DNA of 64,000 nucleotides from assembly GCF_045037415.1 (NCBI RefSeq), contig NZ_CP173438.1. One strand, given 5' to 3'. Below are positions 3,304 to 46,461 of this stretch, piece after piece. The DNA comes from Escherichia coli. GTDB lineage: Bacteria > Pseudomonadota > Gammaproteobacteria > Enterobacterales > Enterobacteriaceae. A program made the translations under genes and the position numbers. Within the stretch, counting starts at the first letter, position 1. Every line of letters begins with the position of its first letter. The notes below the pieces were generated by a model that saw nothing but the letters and a program-made list of their open reading frames with translations, searched no databases and was not told the DNA's origin.

Positions 3304-4734
3304 ATGCCAGATTTTTTCTCCTTTATTAACAGCGTCCTTTGGGGTTCGGTAATGATTTACCTGCTCTTCGGCGCAGGTTGTTGGTTCACTTTTCGCACCG
3401 GATTTGTGCAGTTTCGCTACATCCGCCAGTTTGGCAAAAGTCTTAAAAATAGCATTCATCCACAGCCAGGCGGTTTAACCTCATTTCAGTCATTGTGTAC
3501 CAGTCTTGCAGCGCGCGTGGGTAGCGGCAACCTGGCCGGCGTTGCGCTGGCAATTACCGCCGGTGGACCTGGAGCCGTCTTCTGGATGTGGGTTGCCGCA
3601 TTTATCGGCATGGCGACCTCGTTTGCCGAATGTTCCCTCGCACAGCTTTATAAAGAACGTGATGCCAATGGGCAGTTTCGTGGCGGACCGGCATGGTATA
3701 TGGCGCGCGGGCTGGGGATGCGCTGGATGGGCGTTCTGTTCGCCGTCTTTTTGCTCATCGCCTACGGCATAATTTTCAGCGGAGTTCAGGCGAACGCCGT
3801 TGCGCGAGCCCTGAGTTTTTCTTTTGATTTTCCCCCGCTGGTGACAGGTATTATTCTCGCTGTCTTTGCTATGCTGGCGATCACTCGCGGTCTTCATGGC
3901 GTCGCCCGGCTCATGCAGGGGTTTGTCCCGTTGATGGCGATAATCTGGGTACTGACCAGCCTGGTGATTTGCGTAATGAATATCGGGCAACTTCCCCACG
4001 TCATTTGGTCTATTTTTGAGAGTGCTTTTGGCTGGCAGGAAGCGGCAGGCGGCGCGGCGGGATATACCTTAAGCCAGGCGATTACTAACGGTTTTCAGCG
4101 CAGTATGTTTTCCAATGAGGCGGGAATGGGGTCGACGCCAAACGCGGCAGCGGCAGCTGCGTCCTGGCCTCCGCATCCGGCAGCGCAAGGAATTGTCCAG
4201 ATGATTGGCATTTTTATCGACACCCTGGTCATCTGTACGGCAAGCGCCATGCTGATATTACTGGCGGGTAACGGCACAACCTACATGCCGCTGGAAGGTA
4301 TTCAGCTTATCCAGAAGGCGATGCGGGTGCTAATGGGTTCCTGGGGTGCGGAGTTTGTTACCCTCGTGGTTATTCTGTTTGCCTTCAGCTCCATCGTTGC
4401 CAACTACATTTATGCCGAAAACAATCTCTTCTTTTTACGCCTGAACACCCCTAAAGCGATCTGGTGTCTGCGGATCTGCACCTTCGCAACGGTCATCGGC
4501 GGCACCTTGCTAAGTCTTCCGCTGATGTGGCAACTGGCAGATATCATTATGGCCTGCATGGCTATTACCAATTTGACCGCCATATTACTGCTCTCGCCTG
4601 TGGTTCATACCATTGCCAGTGATTATCTACGCCAGCGTAAACTCGGCGTGCGCCCGGTGTTTGATCCGTTGCGTTATCCGGAGATCGGTCGCCAGCTTTC
4701 TCCGGACGCGTGGGATGATGTTTCGCAGGAGTAA
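3304..4734 (+). CDS. yaaJ: Alanine/glycine:cation symporter (AGCS) family transporter, 476 aa
   Basis: ORF 3304..4734; polytopic membrane protein with AGCS-family features; synteny. Confidence 0.9.
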   Translation: MPDFFSFINSVLWGSVMIYLLFGAGCWFTFRTGFVQFRYIRQFGKSLKNSIHPQPGGLTSFQSLCTSLAARVGSGNLAGVALAITAGGPGAVFWMWVAAFIGMATSFAECSLAQLYKERDANGQFRGGPAWYMARGLGMRWMGVLFAVFLLIAYGIIFSGVQANAVARALSFSFDFPPLVTGIILAVFAMLAITRGLHGVARLMQGFVPLMAIIWVLTSLVICVMNIGQLPHVIWSIFESAFGWQEAAGGAAGYTLSQAITNGFQRSMFSNEAGMGSTPNAAAAAASWPPHPAAQGIVQMIGIFIDTLVICTASAMLILLAGNGTTYMPLEGIQLIQKAMRVLMGSWGAEFVTLVVILFAFSSIVANYIYAENNLFFLRLNTPKAIWCLRICTFATVIGGTLLSLPLMWQLADIIMACMAITNLTAILLLSPVVHTIASDYLRQRKLGVRPVFDPLRYPEIGRQLSPDAWDDVSQE

Positions 4735-4803: not shown

Positions 4804-5580
4804 ATGCTGATTCTTATTTCACCTGCGAAAACGCTTGATTACCAAAGCCCGTTGACCACCACGCGCTATACGCTGCCGGAGCTGTTAGACAACTCCCAGC
4901 AGCTGATCCATGAAGCGCGGAAACTGACGCCCCCGCAGATTAGCTCCCTGATGCGCATCAGCGATAAACTGGCGGGTATCAACGCCGCTCGCTTTCATGA
5001 CTGGCAGCCAGATTTCACACCGGAAAATGCCCGCCAGGCAATTCTGGCGTTTAAAGGTGATGTCTACACTGGCTTGCAGGCCGAAACCTTCAGCGAAGAC
5101 GATTTCGATTTTGCCCAACAGCATTTGCGAATGCTTTCCGGCTTGTATGGCGTACTGCGCCCGCTCGATTTAATGCAGCCTTATCGTCTGGAAATGGGGA
5201 TACGTCTTGAGAATGCCCGAGGGAAAGATCTGTATCAATTCTGGGGAGATATCATCACCAACAAGCTGAACGAGGCGCTCGCAGCACAAGGCGATAATGT
5301 AGTGATAAATCTGGCGTCAGATGAGTATTTTAAATCGGTGAAGCCGAAGAAATTGAATGCCGAGATTATCAAGCCAGTGTTCCTCGATGAGAAGAACGGC
5401 AAATTTAAGATAATCAGCTTCTACGCTAAGAAAGCACGCGGTCTGATGAGTCGTTTCATTATTGAAAATCGGCTGACCAAACCAGAGCAACTAACTGGTT
5501 TTAATAGCGAAGGTTACTTCTTTGATGAAGCTTCCTCCAGCAATGGCGAACTGGTGTTTAAACGCTACGAGCAGCGTTAA
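4804..5580 (+). CDS. yaaA: Peroxide stress resistance protein YaaA (DUF328/UPF0246), 258 aa
   Basis: ORF 4804..5580; sequence [16 protein letters not shown] characteristic of YaaA; synteny. Confidence 0.92.
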
Positions 5581-5589
5581 GTTTGTAGT

Positions 5590-5615
5590 CAATGCCGGAT
5601 GGCAATCCGGCATTG
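5590..5615. terminator. 10-bp-stem hairpin (aatgccggat/atccggcatt) between convergent yaaA and yaaX; likely bidirectional terminator
   Basis: Perfect inverted repeat filling most of the 39-bp intergenic gap; no strong T-tract, so confidence moderate. Confidence 0.5.
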
Positions 5616-5619
5616 ATAT

Positions 5620-5916
5620 TTAGCGATGATGTTTGTCAGGCCCCGGACGATGATCGCCACGATGATCATTGTGCTTGTTATGGCGCGGCGATGGCGGCGG
5701 TCCATATGGGTGCCAGCGATTGCCTCGCCATTCATAATGTTGTTTCCACCAGCCGTGGTCGCGCCAGTGACCGCCATCCCAGTAATAGCCACGATTATCA
5801 CGATCGCCTATCTGTAATTTTACTGACGGGACTAGCGTAATTTCCGCAGCCTGCGCTGCCATGGGAGCGAACAGAACCAGGGAAAGTGCGAGTACGATAG
5901 ATTGCATCTTTTTCAC
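5620..5916 (-). CDS. yaaX: Small secreted His/Trp/Arg-rich protein YaaX (DUF2502), 98 aa with signal peptide
   Basis: ORF 5620..5916; N-terminal signal peptide ending AQAAE; low-complexity basic/aromatic tail; synteny downstream of thrC. Confidence 0.85.
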
Positions 5917-6073
5917 AGGTTACTCCTTTTATCATTGCCCGTTATGGGTCGATATCCGGAGATTACGCGATGAGAACGGCAGTTGTTATTCTCCGCAATC
6001 CTAATCTCTAAGTTACCGCATTTATTGAGAATTTCTCCTTTTTCCCTGTCGTTTTTCTCCATATTTTCTTCAT

Positions 6074-6107
6074 AAAAAAGCCGGGCTGCATAAAAGCAAA
6101 CCCGGCC
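6074..6107 (-). terminator. Probable thrC (thr operon) terminator: GC stem (gccggg/cccggc) followed by U-tract on the minus-strand transcript
   Basis: Inverted repeat followed by A-run on + strand (U-run in thr transcript) about 25 nt after the thrC stop. Confidence 0.5.
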
Positions 6108-6129
6108 TGATTGAGATAATGAATAGATG

Positions 6130-7416
6130 TTACTGATGATTCATCATCAATTTACGCAACGCAGCAAAATCGGCGGGCAGGTTATGCGAAAGCAAGGGTA
6201 AATCAGCACGTTCTGCCAGCTCTTTTGGCAGATCCAACGTTTCACCGAGAATCGCTTCCACGCTCTCTTTAAATTTTGCCGGATGCGCGGTGCCGAGGAA
6301 CAAGCCATATTCGCCTGGATTCAACTGGTCACGCAGCGCACGATAAGCTACGGCAGCGTGCGGCTCCGAGGTATAGCCCAGTTCTTTTAACTCACGCATT
6401 GTCTGTTGCGTGGTTTCATCATCCACGGCTGCATACCCCAGCTCTTTCAGTTGCCAGATTTTGCGGCGGAACAACTCTTCCACACGCGGCCAGTTGTTTG
6501 GCTGGCTAACATCCATCGCATTGGATAACGTCGCCTGAGTCGCTTTGGGTGACCACTGACCGCCGTGCAGGAAACGTGGCACGGTATCATTCACGTTGGT
6601 CGCAGCAATAAAACGCTTCACCGGCAGGCCAAGAGATTTCGCCAGCAGGCCCGCTGTCAAATCGCCGAAGTTACCGCTCGGCACCGAGACAACCAGCTGG
6701 TTGCGCGCTTCCTGCGGCAACTGCGCCACGGCTTCAAAGTAGTAGCAAATCTGCGCCAGCAAACGGCTGATGTTAATGGAGTTAGCAGAGTTTAGCCCCA
6801 GCGCCACTTTCAGCTCTTCATCATCAAACGCCTGCTTCACCAGCGCCTGACAGGCATCGAAATCGCCGTCGATGGCAACAGTTTCGATATTGCCGCCCAA
6901 TGTACAGAACAGTTTTTCTTGCAGTGGACTGATTTTGCCTCGTGGATAGAGGATAACCACTTTCACATTCGGTAAACCGTAGAAAGCATGAGCCACTGCC
7001 GCTCCAGTATCACCGGATGTCGCGGTCAGAATGGTCACTGGCTTATCGCCCGCAATATGGGTCAGCATTTGTGCCATAAAGCGACCGCCGAAATCTTTAA
7101 ATGCCAGCGTTGGCCCGTGGAACAATTCCAGACAACCGACATCGCTTTCAACATTGGCGACCGGAGCCGGGAAGGCAAACGCCGCACGTACGCGCTCTTC
7201 CAGGATTTCCTGCGGGATTTCATCACCAATAAACGCCGAGAGGATCTTCGCACTGCGGGTGACAAAATCCAGCTTCAGCATCTCATCAATTTCAGTCAGG
7301 CTGAATTCCGGCAGGTCGTGCGGAAAAAACAGCCCCTGATTTTTGCCTAACCCCTGGGTTACGGCTTGCGCAAAGCTGACCTGCTCATTGTGATCTTTCA
7401 GATTGTAGAGTTTCAT
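6130..7416 (-). CDS. thrC: Threonine synthase, 428 aa
   Basis: ORF 6130..7416; PLP-dependent threonine synthase sequence; last gene of thrLABC. Confidence 0.97.
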   Translation of the reverse strand: MKLYNLKDHNEQVSFAQAVTQGLGKNQGLFFPHDLPEFSLTEIDEMLKLDFVTRSAKILSAFIGDEIPQEILEERVRAAFAFPAPVANVESDVGCLELFHGPTLAFKDFGGRFMAQMLTHIAGDKPVTILTATSGDTGAAVAHAFYGLPNVKVVILYPRGKISPLQEKLFCTLGGNIETVAIDGDFDACQALVKQAFDDEELKVALGLNSANSINISRLLAQICYYFEAVAQLPQEARNQLVVSVPSGNFGDLTAGLLAKSLGLPVKRFIAATNVNDTVPRFLHGGQWSPKATQATLSNAMDVSQPNNWPRVEELFRRKIWQLKELGYAAVDDETTQQTMRELKELGYTSEPHAAVAYRALRDQLNPGEYGLFLGTAHPAKFKESVEAILGETLDLPKELAERADLPLLSHNLPADFAALRKLMMNHQ

Positions 7417-10839: not shown

Positions 10840-10880
10840 AAAAAAAAAGCCCGCACTGTCAGGTGCGGGCTTTTTTCTGT
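10840..10880 (-). promoter_or_regulatory. thr operon attenuator: intrinsic terminator hairpin (gcccgcac..gtgcgggc) with U-tract between thrL and thrA
   Basis: GC-rich inverted repeat flanked by A8 and T6 runs, positioned between leader peptide stop and thrA start. Confidence 0.85.
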
Positions 10881-10894
10881 GTTTCCTGTACGCG

Positions 10895-10963
<69 letters not shown>

Positions 10964-19044: not shown

Positions 19045-19584
<540 letters not shown>

Positions 19585-19587
19585 TTA

Positions 19588-19658
19588 GGCGTTCACGCCG
19601 CATCCGGCATTCGGTGCACGATGCCTGATGCGACGCTGACGCATCTTATCAGGCCTAC
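19588..19658. repeat. REP/BIME element (two inverted REP units) in yjjX-trpR intergenic region
   Basis: Contains cgccgcatccggca and gatgcctgatgcgacgc..atcaggcctac, matching the REP consensus seen elsewhere in the window. Confidence 0.75.
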
Positions 19659-23890: not shown

Positions 23891-23898
23891 TGCGTAAA

Positions 23899-24003
<105 letters not shown>

Positions 24004-37831: not shown

Positions 37832-38335
37832 TGCCGGATACGGCCTACGGTTCGGCACAGACTTGTAGGCATGATAAGACGCGACAAGCGTCGCATCAGG
37901 CATTATGCGCCGACTGCCGGATGCGGCGTGAACGCCTTATCCGGCCTACGGTTCGGCACAGACTTGTAGGCATGATAAGACGCGTCAGCGTCGCATCAGG
38001 CATTGTGCGCCAACTGCCGGATGCGGCGTGAACGCCTTATCCGGCCTACGGTTCGGCACAGACTTGTAGGCATGATAAGACGCGTCAAGCGTCGCATCAG
38101 GCATTGTGCGCCAACTGCCGGATGCGGCGTGAACGCCTTATCCGGCCTACGGTTCGGCACAAACCTGTAGGCATGATAAGACGCGTCAAGCGTCGCATCA
38201 GGCATTGTGCGCCAACTGCCGGATGCGGCGTGAACGCCTTATCCGGCCTACGGTTCGGCACAAACCTGTAGGCATGATAAGACGCGACAAGCGTCGCATC
38301 AGGCATTATGCGCCGACTGCCGGATGCTGCCTACG
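37832..38335. repeat. BIME/REP tandem array: about 5 copies of a 100-101 bp unit, each built from two inverted REP sequences
   Basis: Direct repetition of gccggatgcggcgtgaacgccttatccggcctacggttcggcaca(g/a)ac(t/c)tgtaggcatgataagacgcg(a/t)caagcgtcgcatcaggcatt(g/a)tgcgcc with period 100-101 bp between convergent yjjW and yjjV. Confidence 0.9.
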
Positions 38336-46138: not shown

Positions 46139-46225
46139 GCGAAGGTGGCGGAATTGGTAGACGCGCTAGCTTCAGGTGTTAGTGTCCTTACGGACGTGGG
46201 GGTTCAAGTCCCCCCCCTCGCACCA
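46139..46225 (+). tRNA. leuQ: tRNA-Leu (anticodon CAG), 87 nt, copy 1
   Basis: gcgaaggtggcggaattggtagacgcg...ttcaagtcccccccctcgcacca; long variable arm; CAG in anticodon loop; encoded CCA. Confidence 0.95.
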
Positions 46226-46253
46226 AAAACCACGTTGATATTGCTCGCACTGG

Positions 46254-46340
46254 GCGAAGGTGGCGGAATTGGTAGACGCGCTAGCTTCAGGTGTTAGTGT
46301 TCTTACGGACGTGGGGGTTCAAGTCCCCCCCCTCGCACCA
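46254..46340 (+). tRNA. leuP: tRNA-Leu (anticodon CAG), 87 nt, copy 2 (one-base variant: agtgttcttacgg vs agtgtccttacgg)
   Basis: Same sequence as copy 1 except a single C to T difference in the variable arm. Confidence 0.95.
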
Positions 46341-46374
46341 AACGAGGCAATATCAAAAAAAGTAAGATGACTGT

Positions 46375-46461
46375 GCGAAGGTGGCGGAATTGGTAGACGC
46401 GCTAGCTTCAGGTGTTAGTGTCCTTACGGACGTGGGGGTTCAAGTCCCCCCCCTCGCACCA
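46375..46461 (+). tRNA. leuV: tRNA-Leu (anticodon CAG), 87 nt, copy 3
   Basis: Identical to copy 1. Confidence 0.95.

Follow-up and report, generated by a model that had tools for sequence, protein, structure and literature searches.

A BIME-free allele of the convergent yaaA/yaaX junction of Escherichia coli with a single hairpin in a 39-bp spacer

Introduction

BIMEs are reportedly polymorphic between Escherichia coli strains, being present in some and absent from others. BIME-1 has been defined as a single-copy combination of a y and a z1 REP with a long L linker, which often contains an IHF site (PMC3333891). The roles of REPs as stabilizers of mRNA 3′ ends have been summarized (PMC3333891, PMC1525189), and the sequence ATCAGGCCTAC, located in REPs, has been published as a natural target of IS621 (PMC11208160).

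In this study, the junction between the convergent genes yaaA and yaaX was analyzed in a stretch of 64,000 nucleotides of E. coli DNA (hereafter, the window). The window carries a BIME-free allele of this junction, which is a common and ordinary strain polymorphism of a known kind.

Results

Genomic context of the yaaA/yaaX spacer

The window contained the thr-operon neighbourhood of E. coli in reverse orientation, with the following features at the locus.

talB, minus strand (ORF list)
3304..4734, plus strand, yaaJ (ORF list)
4804..5580, plus strand, yaaA, 258 aa, peroxide stress protein YaaA (ORF list; RefSeq annotation in genomes that are identical or nearly so)
5578..5580, plus strand, stop codon TAA of yaaA
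5581..5619, no strand, 39-bp spacer separating the convergent stop codons of yaaA and yaaX
5620..5622, minus strand, stop codon TAA of yaaX (on the complementary strand)
5620..5916, minus strand, yaaX, 98 aa, DUF2502 protein with a GTG start (ORF list and RefSeq annotation)
6130..7416, minus strand, thrC, followed by thrB and thrA

By these coordinates the spacer measured 39 bp, as given in the preliminary description of this DNA. That description had also held that the other intergenic distances compared match those of K-12, which was borne out for the two neighbouring spacers, yaaJ-yaaA (69 bp) and yaaX-thrC (213 bp), both of the same length in the window and in MG1655.

Several RNA families were located elsewhere in the window by Rfam. 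The full-length threonine operon leader (RF00506, 122 bits) was found at 10840..10959 on the minus strand, upstream of thrA, as expected, and three 84-nt tRNA genes with equal bit scores (48.5) were found about 30–40 bp apart at 46139..46458 on the plus strand. The family naRNA4 (RF02564) was represented by four tandem units of about 78 nt, spaced at about 100 bp, at 37868..38248 (minus strand) and by one solitary unit at 19578..19655 (plus strand); these matches represent REP/BIME clusters away from the junction.

Structure of the junction hairpin

The spacer contained the following palindrome, located 8 nt past the yaaA stop codon and 3 nt past the yaaX stop codon.

5589..5616, no strand, perfect 28-nt palindrome TCAATGCCGGAT-GGCA-ATCCGGCATTGA with a 12-bp stem and a 4-nt loop
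5589..5600 and 5605..5616, arms of the hairpin
5601..5604, loop GGCA

A hairpin with a 10-bp stem, occupying almost the entire spacer, had previously been noted here. The hairpin is real, but its stem is a perfect 12 bp and the structure is accordingly stronger; it takes up 28 of the 39 nt. In a 60-nt context, the plus-strand RNA folded at −28.7 kcal/mol (z = −6.5) and the minus-strand RNA at −19.1 kcal/mol (z = −4.8), with 0 of 200 shuffles as good in either case. The 10-mer AATGCCGGAT in the left arm corresponds to the 5′ end of y-type REPs and occurs on both strands at the junction. In a search of the window, AATGCCGGAT(G) also started the y REPs at 19596..19611 and 23898..23913.

No Rfam family was found at the junction at the gathering threshold, and the terminator scan did not flag the hairpin in either direction. 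In the yaaA direction, the tail TGATATTT was marginally T-rich (5 T in 8), and the terminator rule recognized the structure only with an inner stem. On the yaaX side, no U-tract followed the stem (the minus-strand tail CTACAAAC has one T in 8), and the hairpin did not qualify as an intrinsic terminator in this direction. The sole terminator-like match of the scan lay inside the yaaX coding sequence (5647..5672, plus strand), where repetitive GATGATC motifs form an AT-rich stem; it is probably a meaningless match at chance level.

Most likely, the hairpin functions as an RNA structure and affects the transcripts of both convergent genes. For yaaA it would most likely serve as a weak intrinsic terminator, and for yaaX it would most likely be a REP-like barrier to 3′ exonucleases, that is, a stem-loop that protects the 3′ end or acts as a roadblock. 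The compact hairpin is accordingly predicted to be, most likely, a shared terminator or a 3′-end-protecting stem-loop.

The 113 bp present in K-12

In MG1655 (NC_000913.3), yaaX (5234..5530) and yaaA (5683..6459) are separated by a spacer of 152 bp. Pairwise alignment of the MG1655 junction with the window contained one gap, of exactly 113 bp, so that the reference spacer is not 39 bp. The distance of about 150 bp that had been given for K-12 was therefore accurate, as was the indel of about 113 bp proposed from it.

5591..5601, site of the K-12-type 113-bp BIME-1, whose exact register the 10-bp repeat AATGCCGGAT leaves ambiguous (alignments with MG1655 and with multiple species)

The extra DNA was compared with REP consensus sequences from PMC11208160 and with the definition of BIME-1 from PMC3333891. 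The K-12 spacer contained a y-type REP, TGCCGGATGCGGCGTGAACGCCTTATCCTGCCTAC, with 2 mismatches to the consensus, and a z1-type REP on the opposite strand, and thus inverted, with 0 mismatches. The linker between them measured 35 bp (AAAAGCATGCAGATTCAATATATTGCAGAATTAAC) and included the IHF-like sequence ATTCAATATATTG, which matches the IHF consensus WATCAANNNNTTR with one mismatch. Judged by sequence, the extra DNA of K-12 is a BIME-1, since inverted y and z1 REPs and a long linker with an IHF-like site are both present. We take this element to be the one annotated as RIP1 in the K-12 GenBank record.

The BIME of K-12 was bracketed by a 10-bp direct repeat of AATGCCGGAT, the right-hand copy of which forms the left arm of the hairpin; the hairpin beside the yaaX stop codon is thus also kept in K-12 (AATGCCGGATTGTTACCCGGCATT). 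The K-12-type extra therefore consists of BIME-1 plus a second copy of the arm, placed between the yaaA stop codon and the hairpin. Because AATGCCGGAT is a generic y-REP 5′ end, also found in two other y REPs of the window, the repeat points to REP-arm homology and not necessarily to a target-site duplication. When the junction of the window was compared with every REP type, at least 16 mismatches were found and no REP was identified, and the L-linker motif of the K-12 BIME was found nowhere in the whole window.

Allele frequencies and insertion of IS621

The junction was surveyed in 5,426 complete E. coli genomes, of which 4,764 had an uninterrupted junction of either form. An intact K-12-type long junction was present in 3,367 genomes, leaving by subtraction about 1,397 genomes (26%) with the short form. 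A 70-mer across the junction of the window was matched over at least 80% of its length by 1,200 of the short-form genomes, and most of the matches listed were identical. The short form was found in UTI89, which we take to belong to phylogroup B2, and in IAI39 and SMS-3-5, presumably of phylogroup F. The long form was found in K-12 and ATCC 8739 (phylogroup A, as we assume), IAI1 (likewise B1) and O157:H7 and O55:H7 (likewise E). Palindromic repeats could in principle be collapsed by assemblers; however, the short form occurs in about 1,400 independent complete genomes, the reference strains UTI89, IAI39 and SMS-3-5 among them, and the 70-mer matches argue the same way. The idea that the short spacer is a collapsed repeat in one genome was rejected, and it has next to no chance of being right.

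In addition, a 49-bp spacer variant was observed in strains N47 and Rb-3, in which the arm is tandemly duplicated as AATGCCGGAT AATGCCGGAT (L002:511-530 and L088, corresponding to window 5591..5600). The duplicated 10-mer is the same one that flanks the BIME of K-12.

In 653 genomes (12%), the long form carried IS621, a 1,279-bp element of the IS110 family with a bridge-RNA recombinase, in the z1 REP of the junction BIME (for example, L004:3201-4631). The element occupied ATCAGGCCTAC, its natural target, and had the CT core at either end. The K-12 spacer contains this target, and the junction of the window does not.

The junction in other Enterobacteriaceae

One genome per species with YaaA was scanned, and 80 loci were returned. 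A convergent yaaX was found beside yaaA in 46 of them, made up of 4 Escherichia loci and the loci of 42 further species in many genera; within the 80 loci, yaaX convergent to yaaA was not found in Salmonella, Klebsiella and most Citrobacter. The stop-to-stop spacer of the 42 non-Escherichia species had a median of 36 bp (range 7–92) and was 50 bp or shorter in 36 of them. It folded at −14 kcal/mol or better in 40 of the 42, and the median z relative to shuffles was −5; the stems were unrelated between genera, as illustrated by AAAACCCCGCCAGCTGGCGGGGTTTT in Enterobacter and AAAAAAAGCCCGGCAATGCCGGGCTTTTTTTT in Kluyvera. A hairpin at the orthologous position with a changed sequence, that is, a conserved structure, was thus observed in 40 of the 42 species.

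The intrinsic-terminator rule of the scan was also applied to these 42 species in both directions, with inner stems allowed. The spacer was recognized in both directions in 18 species, in the yaaX direction only in 6, in the yaaA direction only in 1 and in neither direction in 17. Shapes consisting of an A-run, a stem and a T-run were found at the orthologous junctions of Kluyvera, Franconibacter, Enterobacter and others.

In Citrobacter sp. wls619, Lelliottia, Buttiauxella, Huaxiibacter and Kluyvera ascorbata (loci L024, L030, L047, L052, L055, L056, and L082), the junction was enlarged to 46–92 bp by REP-like palindromes belonging to the respective genus. This suggests that palindromic repeats have repeatedly and independently colonized the convergent yaaA/yaaX junction.

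The Escherichia sample of the scan consisted of four loci, with E. fergusonii and E. marmotae lying outside it. The spacer was short in E. coli SCPM-O-B-8794 (39 bp) and Escherichia sp. E1V33 (38 bp), and a 152-bp BIME-bearing spacer as in K-12 was found in Escherichia sp. MOD1-EC7003 and E. albertii NBRC 107761.

A diverged block reaching into yaaX

Divergence between the two forms extended beyond the indel into the 3′ end of yaaX.

5601..5700, diverged haplotype block comprising the hairpin loop, the right arm and the last ~80 nt of yaaX (sliding-window identity and alignments)

In 60-nt windows, identity between the analyzed DNA and K-12 was 78–84% in this block and 96–100% elsewhere at the locus. 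Within the block, K-12 grouped with E. albertii (91–100%) and MOD1-EC7003 (90–98%), whereas in the 3′ end of yaaA E. albertii and E. coli were only about 87% identical. The C-terminal tail of YaaX differed according to the allele, and the long alleles of three species ended in ...PPPPPRHHKKAPHDHHGGHGPGKHHR. As the alleles differ by about 20% over the loop of the hairpin and the 3′ end of yaaX, they represent old haplotypes and not a recent event in this strain.

The YaaX tail is rich in His, Pro, Gly, and Arg, and its two deeply diverged versions track the absence and presence of the BIME across Escherichia species. Indels of a 12-nt repeat were observed in the tail, giving proteins of 102 aa in B25FEP and SCPM-O-B-8794 and of 104 aa in Escherichia sp. 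E1V33. In a small comparison set, residue F16 of the YaaX of the window was unique, and Y71 was common only to Escherichia sp. E1V33.

When the surveyed genomes were sorted by junction identity, 3,377 fell in the 90–95% band, close to the 3,367 long alleles, and 2,047 fell in the bands of at least 95%, close to the 1,397 short alleles plus the 653 genomes matched on the yaaA half only. These counts are consistent with a near-complete linkage between BIME presence and the type of YaaX tail. The two forms are either a trans-species polymorphism or old haplotypes spread by recombination. A more far-reaching reading is that junctions with and without the BIME are ancient linked haplotypes with matched YaaX tails, whose persistence across Escherichia species, through repeated introgression or balancing selection, would reflect cooperation of the 3′ element with the tail, for example in yaaX mRNA stability or in translation termination beside the hairpin; we regard it as speculative, with a small chance of being correct.

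Discussion

Beyond the preliminary description, the analysis gave the identity of the missing DNA (BIME-1), the frequency of the short form, the family-wide architecture of the junction and a diverged block of ~100 bp that includes the yaaX 3′ end.

We consider the compact single-hairpin junction to be the ancestral yaaA/yaaX architecture in Enterobacteriaceae and the BIME-bearing form to be derived by gain of the element, with a probability of roughly three in four. The compact form is read as ancestral because a compact spacer with one hairpin was found across the 42 other species. A gain is further favored because the hairpin of the long haplotype is degraded, which would follow if its role had passed to the BIME: it has 9 pairs (one of them G-U) and an 8-nt loop, with −14 kcal/mol vs −21 kcal/mol for the short haplotype, which fits a relaxed constraint after arrival of the BIME. 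Moreover, the 10-mer AATGCCGGAT, as a generic y-REP end, offers a homology handle for acquisition. A BIME-bearing ancestor could instead have lost the 113 bp when replication slipped from one 10-mer to the other, leaving one copy and the hairpin. The 10-bp direct repeats lie exactly at the boundaries of the indel and flank a quasi-palindrome, which is a substrate for slipped mispairing, pairing of the y and z1 REPs in one long hairpin would place the repeats next to each other, and the long form is also present in E. albertii and in Escherichia sp. MOD1-EC7003. However, the compact spacer is the rule in the other species, from many genera, and an insertion or conversion directed by homology to the REP arm would be just as likely to leave such a repeat. 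Since the alleles differ at 4 of 14 positions of the hairpin core and by about 20% in the yaaX tail, a deletion from a K-12-like allele would not be recent, and a recent simple deletion of this type was rejected. An old deletion is thus unlikely to explain the short allele. The four Escherichia loci are mixed (2 short and 2 long), and two distant outgroups differ, E. albertii being long and Escherichia sp. E1V33 short, so that the direction of change within the genus is undecidable by parsimony on these four.

The nature of the hairpin itself bears on the same history. If it were a decayed y-type REP, the junction would be a REP remnant and K-12 would carry a three-unit y-L-z1-y* cluster. The left arm is identical to the 5′ ends of the two other y REPs of the window noted above, ATCCGGC, a sequence of y REPs, lies in the right arm, and in Citrobacter sp. 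wls619, Lelliottia and Buttiauxella this junction is occupied by REP-like hairpins. A y REP was taken to be an imperfect palindrome of about 35 nt with an inner GCGGCG...CGCC stem and a terminal CTAC/GTAG tetranucleotide. In common with y REPs, the hairpin of the window had only the outer arm AATGCCGGATG and ATCCGGC; the inner stem and the CTAC tail, both REP-defining, were absent from it, and its best ungapped match to the y consensus had 22 mismatches. It was therefore rejected as a true REP. Its position and size, moreover, match those of non-REP hairpins in other genera, and descent from a decayed REP appears doubtful, if somewhat less so than the old deletion.

If the BIME was gained, as we prefer, the K-12 reference is not ancestral at the yaaA/yaaX junction. 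About a quarter of sequenced E. coli, which we take to be of the B2 and F lineages, are without the first BIME of the K-12 map, and its absence also removes an IS621 target that is occupied in 12% of genomes. The importance of these observations is small beyond annotation, and nothing unexpected was encountered. The only mildly interesting extras are the single hairpin shared across genera and the diverged yaaX-tail haplotype across Escherichia species; the latter could interest students of E. coli recombination and haplotype structure. The junction is also a neat small example of a hairpin between convergent genes in which the structure is conserved and the sequence is not, and of REP/BIME elements settling at such a place.

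Compared with bidirectional intrinsic terminators between convergent genes, the junction is similar in having one GC-rich stem-loop that fills a short spacer between convergent stop codons. The Escherichia hairpin differs in that the T-rich tail is only marginal on the yaaA side and lacking on the yaaX side. It resembles the REP stem-loops that stabilize mRNA 3′ ends in being a stable stem-loop without a U-tract just past a stop codon, with an outer stem as in y REPs; it differs in not being a full REP, and the likeness is one of sequence and predicted fold. The 113 bp of K-12 agree with BIME-1 (RIP/RIB) elements in the y REP, the z1 REP, the linker and the location at the 3′ ends of transcription units, whereas the window, which carries none, represents the unoccupied allele of the site. 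Similarly, the 653 genomes with IS621 at the yaaA/yaaX junction conform to the known insertion of this element into REPs, from which the window differs in having neither the target nor the insertion. As in the BIME polymorphism between E. coli strains, the same intergenic site occurs with and without a BIME, and an insertion sequence, here IS621, is specifically associated with the BIME. The yaaA/yaaX junction departs from that pattern in that the indel is tied to a diverged block of ~100 bp, which is found across species and reaches into the coding end of yaaX.
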